Positions 3,567 to 60,665 of a stretch of DNA of 64,000 nucleotides are shown here, piece after piece. Numbering within the stretch: position 1 is the stretch's first letter; each line of letters starts with the position of its first letter. A model generated the notes under the pieces. The model saw nothing but the letters and a program-made list of their open reading frames with translations, made no database searches and had not been told where the DNA came from. The translations under genes were made by a program, and so were the position numbers. The DNA comes from a virus. The stretch spans positions 32,001 to 96,000 of the IMG/VR virus record IMGVR_UViG_3300020183_000012. One strand, given 5' to 3'.

Positions 3567-4706
3567 CTAGTAGTCGATTCCAATTGCCCATCCATCGCTA
3601 AACCTTCCAGCTGTGATTGGATTTCCACCTATGTATATTTTTGCGGTTTCCAATGGAGATCCAGATTTTTCTAAAACTAATATTCTATTTGAGTTGTCTA
3701 GATCTATAAAAAGATTTCCAAAAAGAATCTTTTTTTCAGTGTCTGGAGAAGCTGAATTGAATGTTGTTGGTTCTTTTGCTGTATTTAAATAATAGTCAGT
3801 GTTGTTTGTTGTGCTTGTTTGTATGGGTATGCCTTTATATGTAGTTCTTATCCCTTGTCTTGATATATCATTGCTTTGTGAATTTTTATACACATGTATA
3901 GCCCTAAAATTATTGTACATTGAAGTAAGTATTGGCACTCCCGAGATAAAAGTTGGCGCATCCTCTGTTGGGCTTCCACTTACAGTCCTTATTATAGGCA
4001 TATGGTTGTCTTCTTGATTTTTGGCAAACTTTATTTGTCCTAGTCCTCCAAAATTCGATATCTCTTCTGTTGCTCCATCTAGTGTATTGTTTATTTCATA
4101 GCTATAGGATATGTATGGACTCAAGGTTGACGATGCGGATTCCAATGAGTGTATGCTTCTTAGATTTGTCGATTGCACTTCTGATCTTTTTACTAAAAAA
4201 AACTGTATGTAGTTGCCGTAAACTTCTCTGTTTTGACAGTATTCATTGAATTTTGAAAGTACAGATGAAGATGTTGTAGTGTTTGTCACAGCAGATAATA
4301 TTAAATCTCCTATGTCTGTTCCATTTAGAAGTTGATCGGCGTTGCCAATACCTCCAGACCATCCTACTCCAGCACATTCTCCTATTATTTCAGGGTCCGC
4401 CAGCGTACACACAGATGTCATTGATGTGTAGCTTAATTCTGCCTGATTGTACTCCCATATGTACAAATCAGTTGTCATTTGTGTGCCTGTTCCAGAAGTT
4501 GTTACATTTAATGAAGCCGATGTTACAGTTGCATATTTTGGCACAGAACTTATATCAAATTTGAAAAATGGTCTTCTGTAAGTGGTAGAACCCTTATTAA
4601 AACCATATCCTACGAGTAAAGTAATGGAAGTATTTCCTACCGGTGCAATAGCAAGTCCATCTAAAAAGGCATCATCATAGGCATAAAGATTAGGAGCAGT
4701 TGGCAT
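3567..4706 (-). CDS. Putative virion/tail-associated protein with DNRLRE-like beta domain
   Basis: 379 aa, S/T/G-rich; RRPFFKFDISSVPKYATVTSASLNV resembles DNRLRE-type domains. Confidence 0.55.
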   Translation of the reverse strand: MPTAPNLYAYDDAFLDGLAIAPVGNTSITLLVGYGFNKGSTTYRRPFFKFDISSVPKYATVTSASLNVTTSGTGTQMTTDLYIWEYNQAELSYTSMTSVCTLADPEIIGECAGVGWSGGIGNADQLLNGTDIGDLILSAVTNTTTSSSVLSKFNEYCQNREVYGNYIQFFLVKRSEVQSTNLRSIHSLESASSTLSPYISYSYEINNTLDGATEEISNFGGLGQIKFAKNQEDNHMPIIRTVSGSPTEDAPTFISGVPILTSMYNNFRAIHVYKNSQSNDISRQGIRTTYKGIPIQTSTTNNTDYYLNTAKEPTTFNSASPDTEKKILFGNLFIDLDNSNRILVLEKSGSPLETAKIYIGGNPITAGRFSDGWAIGIDY

Positions 4707-5731: not shown

Positions 5732-6097
5732 GGGCTCGAAAAGGTATCGATTGGAGGTTGAAACTTAAGATTGCACGCCGTGGTTGGTCGAATGGCCACG
5801 AAAAAAATCGATCAAAAAGTAACTGACAACTATCAGTTCAATTCATACAGAATTGGGTTTACCCAGTTCCGTCTCGCAGCCTAATTCGCTGCAAAGCATC
5901 TCCTGACTCCTGCTGGTGGCAGATGCACATAATAGCAGGATATTCAAACGAGTGTGTTACGAGCGAGTTTGAAGAAATATTCGTAAGAGCTGCCCGTATC
6001 TTGCTTGTGAGTATCGGGTTGCATTAATCACAGGATAAGCGTGTAGACATCTGAGCGTATGCCTAACAACACGGGGGTTCGACTCCCCCCGAGTCCA
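5732..6097 (+). ncRNA. ssrA: tmRNA (SsrA), tag (A)DNYQFNSYRIGFTQFRLAA
   Basis: GGGCTCG/CGAGTCC-A acceptor stem with G3.U wobble; T-arm GGGGGTTCGACTCCCCC; TAACT before resume codon GAC at 5825; tag ORF 5825-5884 ends LAA-TAA. Confidence 0.93.
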
Positions 6098-6100
6098 CAT

Positions 6101-6172
6101 GAGGATGTAACTCAATGGCAGAGTTCTACCCTTCCAAGGTAGATGTTGCGGGTTCGACTCCCGTCATCCTCT
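6101..6172 (+). tRNA. tRNA-Gly(TCC)
   Basis: Cloverleaf; anticodon arm CTACC-CTTCCAA-GGTAG. Confidence 0.93.
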
Positions 6173-6175
6173 TTT

Positions 6176-6272
6176 GCGTAGTTAAGTATCACGTCTACTT
6201 CCGTGAAGACTTATATGGATTAGGCTTTCTAGAGGCTGGAATTGAGAATGGGTGCAAGTCCCTCGCTACGCT
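6176..6272 (+). ncRNA. tRNA-like element (non-canonical)
   Basis: GCGTAGT/GCTACGC 7-bp acceptor-like stem and degenerate T-arm GGG-TGCAAGT-CCC between two tRNAs; interior does not fold as a standard cloverleaf. Confidence 0.3.
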
Positions 6273-6276
6273 TTTC

Positions 6277-6349
6277 GCTCCCTTAACTCAGCGGCTAGAG
6301 TGTCGCCTTTACACGGCGGAAGTCACTGGTTCGAATCCAGTAGGGTGCA
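6277..6349 (+). tRNA. tRNA-Val(TAC)
   Basis: Anticodon arm TCGCC-TTTACAC-GGCGG; T-loop TTCGAAT. Confidence 0.92.
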
Positions 6350-6351
6350 TT

Positions 6352-6423
6352 GCCACTTTAGCTCAACGGCAGAGCAGTGCTTTTGTAAAGCACAGGTTGC
6401 GGGTTCGAATCCAGTAAGTGGCT
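6352..6423 (+). tRNA. tRNA-Thr(TGT)
   Basis: GCCACTT/AAGTGGC acceptor; GTGCT-TTTGTAA-AGCAC. Confidence 0.92.
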
Positions 6424-6426
6424 TTT

Positions 6427-6499
6427 GGTCGGGTACTCAAATGGCTAAGAGAATGGATTGCAAATCCATTATGTGCTGGTTCGAATCCAGTCCCGATCT
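6427..6499 (+). tRNA. tRNA-Cys(GCA)
   Basis: ATGGA-TTGCAAA-TCCAT anticodon arm; U73. Confidence 0.92.
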
Positions 6500-6503
6500 T
6501 TAG

Positions 6504-6586
<83 letters not shown>

Positions 6587-6605
6587 TTGCCGATATATGA
6601 TAGAT

Positions 6606-6678
6606 TCCTCTGTAGCTCAGCTGGTAGAGCAGGGAGCTGTTAACTCCCGGGTCACTGGTTCAAATCCAGTCGGAGGAG
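6606..6678 (+). tRNA. tRNA-Asn(GTT)
   Basis: TCCTCTG/CGGAGGA acceptor; GGGAG-CTGTTAA-CTCCC. Confidence 0.93.
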
Positions 6679-6682
6679 TTTT

Positions 6683-6755
6683 GGCACTGTAGCCCAATGG
6701 CAGAGGCGTTTGATTCAAAATCAAAATAGTGTCGGTTCGAGTCCGACCAGTGCTA
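6683..6755 (+). tRNA. tRNA-Leu(CAA), short variable arm
   Basis: TTTGA-TTCAAAA-TCAAA; A73; variable region only 5 nt. Confidence 0.85.
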
Positions 6756-6799
6756 CTAAAATGCCGATATAGATTGGTGTATAACGTGTTGAGGACAAT

Positions 6800-7165
6800 A
6801 TGAGTGATAGAATTAAACTTTACAATTGGGATCTTTTAACGGCCATAAGGCCAAGGAGAATAAAAATGTTTAGATCTTTAAATTATATTGAGCTGTCTGT
6901 TGGTCTTGCGGTTATTTCGCTTGTTGCTTGGTTTTCAACTGGTAATGCTGAGGTATTTTTAACTATTTTTGGACTTGCCTATTTTCTTTCTATGGCTCAC
7001 GCTTGGAAGGTTTCAATGGATAGTGTCAAGGATTCCAATCACAGAGATCATTCCGAAGTAATTAATAGGTTATGGGATCTTGAAGATAAGTACGAAAAGT
7101 GCTCAGGCAGTAAATGCATGGAGACTAGAGAGAAAGTTACTATCACAAGCAAGGCAGATTTCTGA
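6800..7165 (+). CDS. Hypothetical membrane protein (2 TM)
   Basis: 121 aa; SD GAGGA; two hydrophobic segments. Confidence 0.65.
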   Translation: MSDRIKLYNWDLLTAIRPRRIKMFRSLNYIELSVGLAVISLVAWFSTGNAEVFLTIFGLAYFLSMAHAWKVSMDSVKDSNHRDHSEVINRLWDLEDKYEKCSGSKCMETREKVTITSKADF

Positions 7166-7168
7166 AAA

Positions 7169-7621
7169 ATGGAAGAAATCATTTCTGAAGGTCTTACGAT
7201 AAGATCTGAGGATGCATGTGAAGGAGCATCCGTCAACGATGTAGAGGAGATAATCGGTGACGGATGCTTTCTTCATATGCATTTTGTTTCAGATCAACAG
7301 ATAGATATGGTTCTTGCTGATTCTGCAAATACAAATCAGTATTCTTTTTCAATAAAACCAAAATTTGACGAAGATAAATGTAGAATATTTTTGTCATGTG
7401 ACGGTTCTGTCGATAAGTCTTGTGATCATTTGATAAGAGAAATAGGAAAAGATGTAATAGAAGAGAATAAGTCATTGAAAAAAAGAATTGAGTATCTTGA
7501 AAAAAGCATGAAAAGCATAGATATTGAATTGAGGCTTGAGCGTGCAACAAAAACACTTAAAATTAATGAGCTTCTTGACAAGATAAATTCGCTTGAGAAA
7601 CATAAGATTGTAAACAGTTAA
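7169..7621 (+). CDS. Hypothetical protein with C-terminal coiled coil
   Basis: 150-aa ORF directly downstream of the previous gene. Confidence 0.65.
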   Translation: MEEIISEGLTIRSEDACEGASVNDVEEIIGDGCFLHMHFVSDQQIDMVLADSANTNQYSFSIKPKFDEDKCRIFLSCDGSVDKSCDHLIREIGKDVIEENKSLKKRIEYLEKSMKSIDIELRLERATKTLKINELLDKINSLEKHKIVNS

Positions 7622-7624
7622 AAA

Positions 7625-7714
7625 GGATAGATGGCCGAGTGGTTTAAGGCTGCGGTTTACTAAACCGCCGTAGGCTCCAGAAGCTTACCGGGGGTTCGAA
7701 TCCCTCTCTATCCG
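7625..7714 (+). tRNA. tRNA-Ser with unusual ACT anticodon
   Basis: GGATAGA/TCTATCC-G; GCGGT-TTACTAA-ACCGC; long variable arm; G73. Confidence 0.88.
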
Positions 7715-7719
7715 TTAAT

Positions 7720-7806
7720 GGACAGGTGTCCGAGTGGTTGAAGGAGCAGCATTGGAAATGCTGTTTACGGGAAACCGTAACGTGGGTTCGAATCCCACCT
7801 TGTCCG
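7720..7806 (+). tRNA. tRNA-Ser(GGA)
   Basis: CAGCA-TTGGAAA-TGCTG; long variable arm; G73. Confidence 0.93.
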
Positions 7807-7823
7807 TTTATTGGAGGTTTGAT

Positions 7824-31685: not shown

Positions 31686-32318
31686 TTAGCGGTTGCGTCG
31701 GAGTTGTTGGCGGATTTCGGGTCCTTGAGAGAGGAGGGTCACGGCTCGTTTTGAAGCATCGGATGCTGCGGTCATGCACGCACTAAACTGGTCCTGTAGT
31801 CCCAGGCCCTGAGCTTCGTAGATCATGGCAATCGCTTCATTCGCACAGATTCCTGTCTGTTCGATCTTCAGGTGGATGGTTTCGGGTTCATCCCAGAGAT
31901 CCATTGACCGATCAATTGAATTGATAGTGGATTTGATGTAGAGAAGTTGATCCTCCGCAGCACTGCGCAGGGGGATGAAGGTGTCTACGTAGGCAAGGGT
32001 CCCTTCCCCTTGGGCGATGCGGAGTCTCCTGAGAAGTTCGTCTCTCTCGTGAGGCGAGAAATCCCATTCGTAGATGTCTCGTCTGATCCCTAGGCGTACA
32101 CTGCGTGCCCAATCGTCTTTAAGAGTTAACTCTTTGTAATTAGGGCACTTACGCATCTCATCCAGGAGCGTAGAGTGGAATCTGAACCAGGTTTCCATTC
32201 GGCTCTCCGGAGAGCCCTGAACGGAGGATCGTTCTGCCTGAGAGTCGGATACAGTCGCGCAGGCTGTCTGGAACAGGAGGGATACAGGAAGGATCAAGAC
32301 GGCTAATGCATTTTTCAT
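31686..32318 (-). CDS. Putative lipoprotein
   Basis: SD GGAG; MKNALAVLILPVSLLFQTA-C. Confidence 0.55.
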   Translation of the reverse strand: MKNALAVLILPVSLLFQTACATVSDSQAERSSVQGSPESRMETWFRFHSTLLDEMRKCPNYKELTLKDDWARSVRLGIRRDIYEWDFSPHERDELLRRLRIAQGEGTLAYVDTFIPLRSAAEDQLLYIKSTINSIDRSMDLWDEPETIHLKIEQTGICANEAIAMIYEAQGLGLQDQFSACMTAASDASKRAVTLLSQGPEIRQQLRRNR

Positions 32319-51030: not shown

Positions 51031-51191
51031 AATACGACTACGAAGTAAGGGACTTCATCAATCGCCCAATTTACTCAGGCGGTCAATGGAAATACATTCA
51101 ACTAAGTCCCGATGACTGCATCGCAAAGTTGATGCAATTCGTCAGAGATGAAACACCGAGCGATGAGTACCGCTCTGACGAACTTATTTGA
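50982..51191 (+). CDS. Hypothetical protein
   Basis: 69-aa ORF. Confidence 0.45.
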   Translation: MLHIFYNPSNDSFRVLKYDYEVRDFINRPIYSGGQWKYIQLSPDDCIAKLMQFVRDETPSDEYRSDELI

Positions 51192-51198
51192 CACAACA

Positions 51199-51243
51199 GG
51201 GTCAGTTTAGGTTGGTTGAGGCTTGTTTAGATAAGGTATGATT
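51199..51243 (+). repeat. Orphan N-G-N-Y-N pentamer tract (9 units)
   Basis: GGGTC AGTTT AGGTT GGTTG AGGCT TGTTT AGATA AGGTA TGATT. Confidence 0.7.
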
Positions 51244-51269
51244 TTTCATCGGGTGAATAAACTAATGGC

Positions 51270-51635
51270 ATGAGTCACCCTTACCATCACGCTCTGTCAA
51301 GTGTCAAGCGTTTCGGAGGCACTTGGAGCGATTACATTGAGATTCACGAATGGTTCGATCAGACGAAGGCTCTTATCCCTGATGTTCGTCATCGGGCAAT
51401 CCTTCATTCGTCTTTCGGAATCTTCCTGTGCCAACAGGTTTTCGGTGAGGTTCTTGTGCGGGATTCTGACGGAAAGCCCGTGCCTGTCCGTACCATTGCG
51501 GAGCAACACATTATTGAGGACATGGGATTTATCCCTACTCCTCAAGATTGGTTTGCGGGTATGCAGCCCGAGAAGTGGATGGCAAGAGGAGCAAAGCCTC
51601 TTTCCGCTGAAACAGAACAAGTTTTGGCTGACTAG
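51270..51635 (+). CDS. DUF6915-like protein
   Basis: HPYHHALSSVKRFGG..DY..IHEWFD..K....D.RHRA..H; R.IAEQHI.ED.GFIP. Confidence 0.75.
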   Translation: MSHPYHHALSSVKRFGGTWSDYIEIHEWFDQTKALIPDVRHRAILHSSFGIFLCQQVFGEVLVRDSDGKPVPVRTIAEQHIIEDMGFIPTPQDWFAGMQPEKWMARGAKPLSAETEQVLAD

Positions 51636-51645
51636 ACAATCTTAA

Positions 51646-51719
51646 GTTCCCGTGGCTCAGTTGGATAGAGCAGCCGCCTTCTAAGCGGCAGGTCGCTGGT
51701 TCGAGTCCAGCCGGGAACG
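51646..51719 (+). tRNA. tRNA-Arg(TCT)
   Basis: GCCGC-CTTCTAA-GCGGC. Confidence 0.93.
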
Positions 51720-51944
51720 CTTCTACGATACCCGGTTCATAGCCGGGTATTTTAACTAATCCGGGGAATCTGCATTATTTTGCTTGCCTATTTGGTCTAT
51801 TGGGCTATAGTTCCACCTCTGAAGAGATGATTCAAGGTGCATAGACTACATAGGTGAAAGTTGCATCCCGAGAATAGACTAATGGGGTAATAGTGCCGCA
51901 CCGAGTGGCACAACAAGTTGAGCATTCGCACAAGGATACAAATA

Positions 51945-52583
51945 ATGCCTGTTGCAAGTCCTATTGATACCGGAACACGCACCTTGACTTTCATCATCAA
52001 GGGAATCGCACCGTTGATGATGCACAACGGTCTGTTGGCTTCGCCCTTCTATTCGTATACCAAGCGTCTGAAGGAGATCACCAAGAAGCGCGGCAAGACC
52101 GAAGAGGATCATATTGAGGTGGCTAAGATTGAGTGGGAAGGCGGTCTTTACATGAGTAGCCGCGATGCGGATACTGGTCTTTGGTCTGAGGACTCGCATC
52201 CCATCATTCCCGCTGAGTGTCTTTACGCGACCCTTCTCGCGGGAGCAAAGGCTTTCAAAGGCGGGATGTCTTTCAAGGCAGGAGTGTTCATTACTCAATC
52301 GGCTCGTCTGCGCTACAAGGGAGACAACAAGATCAAGACTCTTGCTGACCTTCGTGGCAAAGATATTTTCATCGACTCCCGCCTCGTTGATGTAAACGGC
52401 AGCAAGGTGACGCGAACCCGCCCGATCTTCCACGATTGGTCGTGCGAGTTCAATGTTGAGTATGATCCGTCCGTTGTTGATGAAGCAGACCTTATCCGTT
52501 GGGTTCAAACGGGCGGTAGGCTCAAGGGTCTTTGCGAACTGCGTCCAACGATGGGTCGGTTCACCATTGAGTCTTACAAGTGA
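51945..52583 (+). CDS. Stand-alone RAMP/Cas7-like protein
   Basis: 212 aa from MPVASP (SD CAAGGA); beta1 LTFIIKGIAPLMMHN, PIIPAECL, thumb-like IDSRLVDVNGSKVTRTRP, WSCEFNVEY, C-terminal G-rich loop GGRLKGLCELRPTMGRF. Confidence 0.65.
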   Translation: MPVASPIDTGTRTLTFIIKGIAPLMMHNGLLASPFYSYTKRLKEITKKRGKTEEDHIEVAKIEWEGGLYMSSRDADTGLWSEDSHPIIPAECLYATLLAGAKAFKGGMSFKAGVFITQSARLRYKGDNKIKTLADLRGKDIFIDSRLVDVNGSKVTRTRPIFHDWSCEFNVEYDPSVVDEADLIRWVQTGGRLKGLCELRPTMGRFTIESYK

Positions 52584-52589
52584 TGCTCT

Positions 52590-52920
52590 CCTCTCTCCGC
52601 AGAAATGCGTAGAGAGGCTTTCTTATGGTCTGCTTTGGCAGGATACGGTTCGTTGCGCTCAGGAGTGGTCTGCTTCTCGCCTTCTACCGGGGAAACCCGG
52701 TTTGGAGGCTTTCTTTAGGTCGGATGCCCTCAGATTGGGCTAGTTTAGGTAGGGTGTGATGCGATGTGTTCCGCTTCTCGCCTTCTACCGGGGAAACCCG
52801 GTTTGGAGGCTTTCTTTAGTCTTGTTGGGGCATGATACGGTCAGGTTCGGTAAGGTCAGAAGAGGTATGCTTCTCGCCTTCTACCGGGGAAACCCGGTTT
52901 GAAGGCTTTCGTGGGTACGG
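52590..52920 (+). repeat. CRISPR-like array of GAAA-hairpin repeats with pentamer-periodic spacers
   Basis: 42-bp repeat GCTTCTCGCCTTCTACCGGGGAAACCCGGTTTGGAGGCTTTC at 52672, 52773, 52869 (one substitution in copy 3); divergent first hairpin 52590-52617; spacers of 10, 12 and 11 NGNYN units. Confidence 0.9.
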
Positions 52921-52992
52921 CAAAGTTGCATCCGTTGAATAAAGTAGTCTTGCCCAAGTGGGCAATCTCAATCATCTAGGAGCAGAACAACA

Positions 52993-54003
52993 ATGGCACA
53001 TGGAATTAAGAATCGTGATCGCGTCCTCATCGTTGGTGACCGTGGTTGGCACGGGTTGGGTCAGCAGATGGATTCGATCAGCATGACCGATCTCAAGGAG
53101 CAGTTCCCATACTCCTACGAGAAGGTTCCGATGTTCACCGCCGATGGCGTGGAAGTTGAAGGCTTCAAGGCTGTCATCACTACCGATGACAAGCAGAGCA
53201 ACGGTGTCGTGGGTGACACCTACGAGATCATCAACCTTGACGAGATGTTTGGTCTTGCTAACGATCTTGTTGTTGCTCACGGGACGGGTCGTGTTGTCAG
53301 CGCAGGAAGCCTTCACAACCGCGAGGACTTTTTCGTTGATCTCGGCATCGACCGCGAGTTCCGCAGCGGTGAGGATGTCAACAAGCCATTCATCGGTATC
53401 ACCAACAACTTCTGTGGTATGCGCCACTTCGTTGCGGGAGCGCACATGAACAGGATCGTCTGCGCCAATACTCTGAATCTCATGCTCCGCGAAGTCAAGG
53501 GTTCTCCTCGCGCCATCAAGATTCGTCACACTAAGGGTGCATGGAACCGACTCGCTGAGGCGAAGCGCATTCTCGGCATCACCCTTGCCGCGTTCGACAA
53601 GGCTGATGAGGAGATGCACCAAATGATCTCCAAGAAGATGACCGATGCAGAGATCGCTTCGTACTATGATGCCATCATGCCGATGACCAACATCCCGCCT
53701 CGCCGTGCAGACGAGAACGAGGAGCAGTATGAAGCCCGTGTTGAAACCATCGAACGCGCAAACCGCAAGGCTTCCCGTGTCCGTGCAGAGTGGAGCATGA
53801 CGCTTGACAACGAGCGCGGCGTTCTTGGTCAGGAGCCGAACCTTTGGCTTGCGATGAACTCCGTGACCAAGTGGGTTCAGCATGAGAATCAGGTGAAGAA
53901 CGAATCGACCAATCCCCTGATCCGTGGTTGGAGCAACCGTTTTGCAACGGGCTTCAAGATGACAAACGAAGCCCATGACGCAGCATTGTCTGTGCTTGGG
54001 TAA
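52993..54003 (+). CDS. DUF932/DUF945 (TIGR03299-like) phage/plasmid protein
   Basis: WHGLG, SAGSL, RIVCANTL, IKIRHT, LWLAMNSVT.W.QH. Confidence 0.85.
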   Translation: MAHGIKNRDRVLIVGDRGWHGLGQQMDSISMTDLKEQFPYSYEKVPMFTADGVEVEGFKAVITTDDKQSNGVVGDTYEIINLDEMFGLANDLVVAHGTGRVVSAGSLHNREDFFVDLGIDREFRSGEDVNKPFIGITNNFCGMRHFVAGAHMNRIVCANTLNLMLREVKGSPRAIKIRHTKGAWNRLAEAKRILGITLAAFDKADEEMHQMISKKMTDAEIASYYDAIMPMTNIPPRRADENEEQYEARVETIERANRKASRVRAEWSMTLDNERGVLGQEPNLWLAMNSVTKWVQHENQVKNESTNPLIRGWSNRFATGFKMTNEAHDAALSVLG

Positions 54004-54012
54004 ACCGAACTA

Positions 54013-54100
54013 AGGTTAGGTATGGCGAGTCTAGGTATGCCCTGCCATTGTATGGTCTGTCAAGTTCAGTCCCCTTCACCGGAGAAATCCGGTGGAGGGG
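54013..54100 (+). repeat. Orphan array unit: 12 NGNYN pentamers + GAAA hairpin
   Basis: AGGTT AGGTA TGGCG AGTCT AGGTA TGCCC TGCCA TTGTA TGGTC TGTCA AGTTC AGTCC then CCCCTTCACCGGA-GAAA-TCCGGTGGAGGGG. Confidence 0.8.
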
Positions 54101-54122
54101 TTTTGCCGATAAACATAATGAC

Positions 54123-54193
54123 TGCCTTGTGGTGAAACGGTATCACGGGAGACTTTGGATCTCCTTTTCTTGGTTCAAATCCAAGCAGGGCAA
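54123..54193 (+). tRNA. tRNA-Gln(TTG)
   Basis: TGCCTTG/CAGGGCA; GGAGA-CTTTGGA-TCTCC. Confidence 0.9.
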
Positions 54194-54236
54194 ATCTTTC
54201 ATCCTGGAAATAAACTAATCGGACAAGGAGAACCGG

Positions 54237-54452
54237 ATGCAGAACCCCGTTACCATCACCGAAAACTGCCGAATCACCGGAGAGGCTTACTCAGTCACGG
54301 TGGATTCAGGCGACCTTGAGCGTTACAAGAACGGCGAGGGTCTGATTCAGAACATCTTCCACTACCTTAACGCAGGGGATCGTGAGTTCATCAAGACAGG
54401 CATCTCGCCCAAGGGTTGGGAAATCATGTTTGCAAACGAAGAAGAGGACTAA
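54237..54452 (+). CDS. Small conserved phage protein
   Basis: LIQNIF.YL.A.DREFIKTGISP..W motif; repeat promoter + SD. Confidence 0.75.
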   Translation: MQNPVTITENCRITGEAYSVTVDSGDLERYKNGEGLIQNIFHYLNAGDREFIKTGISPKGWEIMFANEEED

Positions 54453-60603: not shown

Positions 60604-60665
60604 ACTCGTCTGAGCGAGTATAAACAGGGTATTAGGCTCAGAGCGGCAGGGAAACCTGCTTTACC
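60604..60665 (+). ncRNA. Pistol self-cleaving ribozyme
   Basis: P1 ACTCG/CGAGT with loop TCTGAG pairing to CTCAGA (pseudoknot); ATAAACAG linker; P2 GGTA/TACC; TTAG; GCG; P3 GCAGG-GAAA-CCTGC; predicted cleavage 60660/60661. Confidence 0.88.

Follow-up and report, generated by a model that had tools for sequence, protein, structure and literature searches.

The systems named VIPR (for Viral Interference Programmable Repeat) were described in 2026 in three preprints (10.64898/2026.04.26.720920; 10.64898/2026.04.26.720927; 10.64898/2026.10.15.759431). According to the accessible text of these preprints, Vipr, a minimal RAMP protein, polymerises on vrRNAs in which 9-16 GGY/NN units precede a structured tail. 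Vipr itself holds the GGY bases, the NN bases pair with targets of the form NNxNNx in which x falls on codon wobble positions, and binding represses transcription. Satellites, prophages and the VIPR loci of rivals are given as natural targets. Seven VIPR types are in print, and an accessory vap gene beside vipr is described as typical, not universal. The SUSP1 system, a type II VIPR, consists of Vipr, vap1 and four vrRNAs (10.64898/2026.04.26.720920; 10.64898/2026.04.26.720927; PDB 36pp). Residues H17, K33, R138, D177 and R179 of SUSP1 Vipr hold G1 and Y3 of the scaffold and contact the target backbone, and W178 stacks on G2 (10.64898/2026.04.26.720927). Relaxed repeat consensus forms have also been named, being NNNGG, YNNNG and NNNNG (10.64898/2026.04.26.720920).

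The DNA analysed here is a stretch of 64,000 nucleotides (the window), positions 32,001 to 96,000 of virus record IMGVR_UViG_3300020183_000012, from a phage genome of 146,719 bases. Positions 51200-54106 of the window are very probably a phage VIPR locus, taken as a whole and including a guide mechanism like that of SUSP1. As in SUSP1, the system is phage-encoded, a homologous Vipr protein is present, one guide lies upstream of vipr and an array of three lies downstream, and no self-target was found.

The vipr gene and its neighbours

The vipr gene, encoding a RAMP/Cas7-like Vipr protein, is located at 51945..52583 on the + strand. The reading frame extends back to 51918, but close homologues begin at the Met at 51945 (212 aa); its end is 7 bases before the leader hairpin of the array. 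No Pfam family was matched, and the ORF is a member of PHROG 4652, the function of which is annotated as unknown. Homologues were found by tblastn in 131 phage records. A profile of this protein and 27 homologues (28 sequences) matched PDB 36pp_D, 'SUSP1 Vipr protein', with E = 9.2e-54; the single sequence matched the same chain over residues 23-218 with E = 3.8e-16. SUSP1 residues H17, K33, R138, D177 and R179 aligned to H36, K52, R168, E206 (D to E) and R208, with H36 and R168 invariant across the 28 sequences.

An AlphaFold model of the protein had a mean pLDDT of 93.6. The Foldseek matches listed for this model were all CRISPR type III complexes, with Csm/Csm3 on top (best E 1.6e-5). The RAMP fold is thus shared with the Cas7/Csm3 backbone of class 1 CRISPR, the top matches being Csm3 chains with E about 1e-5. 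With crRNA as with vrRNA, one protomer covers each RNA segment of fixed length and pairing is periodically disrupted, but the period is 5 nt in VIPR and 6 nt in Cas7/Csm3, and two of every five guide bases pair in VIPR. Unlike class 1 CRISPR, this phage showed no cas1, cas2 or effector genes, Cas families being absent from the Pfam hits of 104 ORFs in a scan that excluded roughly fifty window ORFs of at least 110 aa, and repeats are present within the guides as well as between them. Identity as CRISPR-Cas was rejected, as the 'spacers' carry a strict 5-nt scaffold. At first the array was taken for an RNA that wraps around a protein, as with TRAP, or for a set of small RNAs in tandem, with terminators; this was dropped on the Vipr match of the neighbouring protein.

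Other genes are interleaved with the guides, which sets this locus apart from SUSP1. A DUF6915 gene (51270..51635, + strand; PF21866, E 1.2e-44) lies between vipr and guide A, the guide upstream of it; a predicted tRNA-Arg(tct) gene is found inside the locus at 51646..51720 (+ strand); and a DUF932 gene (52993..54003, + strand; Pfam) separates the array from guide B, a fifth guide located beyond it. The DUF932 gene was also found 3' of the array in six relatives. Assembled contigs of two possible RNA runs (X19 and X20) covered the tRNA and portions of the DUF6915 and DUF932 genes, with the array outside the coverage; the one clear RNA run reached only portions of these two protein genes. As a further difference from SUSP1, no vap1 homologue was found in this genome: with wV8 gp94, Medea1_0008 and Trine gp40, which are mutually homologous, as queries, no tblastn match was better than E = 1.5.

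The motif GGTGAATAAASTA (at most 2 mismatches) occurs in 28 copies, 2.9 being expected, and 27 of the 28 are on the + strand. Copies are located at 51252-51264, 51836-51848 and 52934-52946 and at 25 other positions, their density rising toward the window's 3' end. This motif is probably a phage-specific promoter. Its copies divide the VIPR locus into units starting before DUF6915, vipr and DUF932.

Pentamer runs were also searched for beside vipr genes elsewhere. In the first four unrelated phages in culture that were examined (Pseudomonas Medea1, Listonella phiHSIC, Escherichia wV8 and Gordonia Trine), vipr adjoins same-strand (GGY-NN)n runs of 8-14 units in every case. Among six vipr loci examined later, such runs stood beside the gene in five, and no run was called in the sixth (L036). 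A wider sampling of Vipr loci in the genome_contigs collection returned a single locus.

Some of these loci gave observations of their own. In Gordonia phage Trine, the annotated CDS of gene 40 (L004, 3585-4388) starts inside two GGC-NN runs (3623-3692 and 3742-3796), and its likeness to the vap1 of wV8 and Medea1 is confined to the C-terminal part; the annotated start is probably wrong and overlaps guide RNAs. In Escherichia phage wV8 (L003), 'DR_4' repeat_region features are annotated at 2765-2822 and 4158-4215 beside two GGY-NN runs flanking vipr-vap1, one run overlapping its feature and the other beginning 20 bases beyond. A MAG labelled FCB group bacterium (L031, 2304-3964) carries a Vipr homologue of 33% identity. 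Six GGY-NN guides stand in pairs on either side of this gene, and 74 of their 75 units have G at position 2.

Guides, leader and tails

The array follows vipr on the + strand. It opens with a leader hairpin at 52590..52617, an inverted repeat with 12-nt arms and a GAAA loop. Three stretches in a strict 5-nt register, G-N-Y-N-N, follow: the guide of vrRNA 1 at 52627..52671 (9 units, NN = CT TT AG AC TC GC CA GT CT), that of vrRNA 2 at 52718..52772 (11 units, NN = CG GC CA TG TA TA AG GT GC GT CC) and that of vrRNA 3 at 52819..52868 (10 units, NN = TT GG AT AC CA TC AA CA GA AT). Counted by eye, G occupies position 1 in 29 of the 30 units but position 2 in only 15, and C or T occupies position 3 in 28.

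The original prediction had stripped positions 1-3 of each pentamer and read the remaining NN bases as guide strings. These three strings proved exact as first written, they are mutually unrelated as had been claimed, and the division of the pentamer into scaffold (GNY) and guide (NN) agrees with the published VIPR code. That the guides were acquired, which had also been proposed, found no support in this analysis. By the VIPR reading, the three strings would be the specificity determinants of vrRNAs 1-3.

The same 47-nt repeat is present 3' of each array stretch; it includes a GAAA-loop hairpin in two parts, together with a TTTCTTT run. Tail 1 (52679..52716, + strand) has the hairpin GCCTTC-TA-CCGGG-GAAA-CCCGG-TTT-GGAGGC followed by TTTCTTT; tail 2 (52780..52817, + strand) has the same sequence, and in tail 3 (52876..52912, + strand) the outer stem is GCCTTC/GAAGGC. 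The array was not detected by Tandem Repeats Finder, and Rfam at gathering thresholds gave no family at the locus.

Pentamer runs comprising 7 or more units, with no more than 1 miss, were sought on both strands of the 146,719-base phage genome. Six places were found, all on the + strand and five of them within 51190-54073 of the window; the - strand gave zero runs by the same criterion. In each of thirty mononucleotide shuffles of the genome, 0-2 such places were found. Chance falls far short of explaining the 5-nt G-N-Y-N-N period.

Five guides of 9-12 GNY-NN units each are thus contained in the window, all intergenic and all on the strand of the vipr gene. Besides the three of the array, these are guide A at 51200..51244 (+ strand; 9 units, NN = CA TA TG GA TT TA AA AT TT), 1.4 kb upstream of the array guides and just 5' of a copy of the promoter-like motif, and guide B at 54014..54073 (+ strand; 12 units, NN = TA AT GA TA AT CT AT AT CT AA CA CC), 1.1 kb downstream of them. 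Guide B is followed by tail B (54071..54106, + strand), a related hairpin CCCCTTCACCGGA-GAAA-TCCGGTGGAGGGG and then TTTT, with a fold z of -3.6. The tail hairpin was found after four of the five guides; it is absent from guide A.

When the RNAs were folded singly, the tail formed as predicted in four of the five; guide A was without it, and the minimum-energy fold of vrRNA 2 paired differently. The hairpin and U-run after the guides form the conserved 3' tail, and they probably also end or delimit each RNA. The expected vrRNAs of about 100 nt, with 9-12 five-base units and a structured 3' tail, resemble those of SUSP1; the two-part GNRA hairpin with U-run differs from the pseudoknot described for the SUSP1 tail.

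Conservation and turnover among relatives

Nine metagenome loci with a Vipr 58-95% identical to that of this phage were obtained. A search for close relatives in the viral_contigs collection gave none, and at the DNA level the locus resembled cultured phages only in the tRNA. The leader hairpin is shared with L005, L006 and L007. Guide A is conserved in L006, L007 and L009, with NN kept and positions 2 and 3 changed; guide 3 has orthologues in L005, L006 and L007; and the NN string of guide B is identical in L005 and L007 despite changes in the scaffold. Across the orthologues of guides A, B and 3, variation was seen in 4 of 62 NN columns and in 17 of 62 columns at positions 2 and 3 (Fisher p = 0.003). 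With NN kept and scaffold positions 2 and 3 drifting, selection acts on exactly the decoded bases. In an alignment of the tail hairpin from 15 sequences, compensatory changes were observed in 10 of the 11 predicted pairs.

The array itself varies among close relatives, from none in L009-L011 through three guides here to at least 7 in L006. In L009-L011, the Vipr of which is 84% identical, the downstream array (52590-52915 here) is missing and guides A and/or B are retained. The lack of an array in these relatives could mean that the array, decaying or orphaned, is a remnant whose pentamer runs guide nothing any more, and this would also fit the degenerate scaffold position 2 and the fact that the searches described below found no target. 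The vipr gene is intact with conserved contact residues, however; neutral decay would give the opposite of conserved NN bases in a drifting scaffold; and the pairing of the tail is maintained by compensatory changes. A remnant is therefore considered very unlikely.

The periodic RNAs might alternatively be protein-binding regulators or sponges, wrapping an oligomer as the trp leader wraps TRAP, or tandem terminators, with no target pairing involved. A 5-nt period with 9-12 units resembles a TRAP binding site, and a hairpin with a U-run closes each unit. Against this stand the adjacent protein, a homologue of Vipr from a family shown in the preprints to use such RNAs as DNA guides, and the NN bases, which are diverse between guides and conserved within orthologues and so point to specificity determinants and not to a generic platform. 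We regard such a role as extremely improbable and retain the VIPR reading.

Scaffold position 2

The scaffold of this locus departs from that of SUSP1, being G-N-Y with position 2 free in place of G-G-Y. The residue that stacks on G2 in SUSP1, W178, aligns to Leu207 here. Across the loci of this clade, position 2 is G in 36-57% of units by the GNY caller. With a looser caller, and counting only loci that gave guide calls, four clade loci with L or M at that residue had 12-49% G at position 2, and nine other loci with W, Y or F had 54-99%, the two lowest of which include probably spurious calls.

Since only about half of the units have G2, and Leu stands in place of the Trp, the published contacts cannot all apply here. 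The clade may be a natural Vipr specificity variant, in which loss of the G2-stacking Trp freed scaffold position 2 and gave a GNY-NN code. As all L/M loci belong to one clade and so represent one evolutionary event, this is only a lead. Like the relaxed-consensus VIPR types, the locus keeps a period of five bases in which fewer than three of the scaffold bases are fixed. Its form, YNNGN as the preprint would write it (G1 and Y3 kept, G2 free), differs from the three forms named in the accessible text of the preprint, although it may still be among the logos of its fig. S17.

Target searches

According to the original prediction, made from sequence alone, targets could be either contiguous or of a skip-one pattern that tolerates wobble mutations. 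The skip-one option is the rule shown experimentally for the vrRNAs of VIPR systems; for this clade it is expected by extension. Full-length matches enriched over shuffled NN strings had also been anticipated. In the phage genome no full-length match exceeded the shuffled strings at gaps 0, 1 or 2, with 100 shuffled guides used as the null. The nearest case was guide A at gap 2, with 16 of 18 bases matched, a level that 6 of 100 shuffles reached. At gap 3 the only matches in the phage genome were the guides themselves. For 30 guide calls, comprising 20 distinct NN strings and drawn from the phage and from relatives, nothing above the null was found in this genome or in the loci of the relatives. 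Similarly, six guides compared at codon level with 28 Vipr proteins, for possible anti-vipr targeting, gave nothing above the null.

Public collections were scanned with zero mismatches allowed, whereas the VIPR preprints accept 80% NN identity. Guides 2, 3 and B gave 0 exact skip-one matches each in viral_contigs and in genome_contigs, and the longer version of guide 3 in L005 and L006 gave none in viral_contigs. Guide A had 3 matches in viral_contigs, two of them identical and all out of codon register. Guide 1 had one match in viral_contigs and 6 in genome_contigs, the latter in unrelated bacteria. None of these exact skip-one matches is separable from chance. Taking lack of enrichment as a refutation, as first proposed, is too strict, because the collections may lack what an uncultured lake phage targets and the scans were mismatch-free. 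For comparison, targets could be identified for only 20 of 41 SUSP1-clade vrRNAs, although the E. coli pangenome was available (10.64898/2026.04.26.720920).

The single viral match of guide 1, on contig L014, could point to a specific target: the 3' end of psbA (photosystem II D1) in rival cyanophages, with a lake picocyanobacterium as host and the photosynthesis gene of a competitor silenced. The match is exact over 9 of 9 units and is the only one in the viral contigs, its boundaries coincide exactly with the ends of guide 1, and the matched ORF shares about 81% identity with psbA from Synechococcus phages. The skipped bases are third codon positions, the codons spelling STWADVLNR, and a reversed guide 1 used as control pattern gave 0 matches in viral_contigs. 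The phage is also common in lake-water metagenomes.

Only 18 bases are specified, however, and the 6 exact matches in genome_contigs come from unrelated gut and other genomes, none cyanobacterial, in 596 billion bases; with six such chance-like matches, it is plausible that the viral collection holds about one by chance. The wobble register adds only a factor of about 3. None of 25 other distinct guides of the clade rose above the null on the 18.6-kb psbA contig, and this contig shares almost nothing with the phage, a single weak tblastn match of 71 aa being found. The phage itself showed no photosynthesis or cyanophage hallmark gene, either by Pfam on 15 window ORFs and 82 ORFs outside it or by tblastn for D1. 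Targeting of psbA by guide 1 is for these reasons regarded as unlikely.

The phage and its environment

At least 94% of the sampled words of the locus (51150-54250) were present in 18 lake-water or freshwater metagenome runs from 18 studies, and two more runs, from which the DNA may itself have come, were at 98%. The gene content of the phage includes 16 tRNA genes, a tmRNA and a Pistol ribozyme, and within the window Rfam gave only tRNAs, one tmRNA and the Pistol ribozyme. Clues to the host were sought in its proteins: an ORF for an AAA_5/CbbQ_C ATPase had tblastn matches of about 30% identity in diverse phages only, and Pfam on the 82 ORFs outside the window gave no host-specific hallmark.

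The Pistol ribozyme is located at 60604-60665 on the + strand (Rfam RF02679, 55.6 bits). At 5732-7807 of the window, nine tRNA genes follow the tmRNA (tag DNYQFNSYRIGFTQFRLAA). Among these are a tRNA-Ser whose anticodon was called as ACT and a tRNA of 74 nt that was called Leu(CAA), short for a bacterial tRNA-Leu.

Proposed mechanism and significance

By homology to SUSP1, Vipr would polymerise along each vrRNA of about 100 nt, one protomer per pentamer, holding G1 and Y3 of every G-N-Y scaffold and presenting the two N bases. The filament would then find double-stranded DNA reading NN-x-NN-x, one target base being skipped per unit, and by staying bound would block transcription of a rival mobile element. 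In this scheme we infer from the published system that the RNAs are expressed, that filaments form, that the skip-one rule holds in this clade, and what is targeted.

As VIPR was already published in 2026 as a kind of system, what the locus adds is its extension to an abundant, uncultured lake phage of 147 kb. Given the right metagenomes and a mismatch-tolerant search, the targets of the five decoded guides could identify the rivals or satellites of this phage. If the psbA match were genuine, the phage would silence the photosynthesis gene of a rival, RNA-guided, in a shared lake cyanobacterial host. The simple hairpin tail may help in engineering shorter vrRNAs. Finally, the natural pairing of a relaxed GNY scaffold with a Trp-to-Leu change at the G2-holding residue offers an inexpensive way to test the manner in which Vipr reads its RNA.
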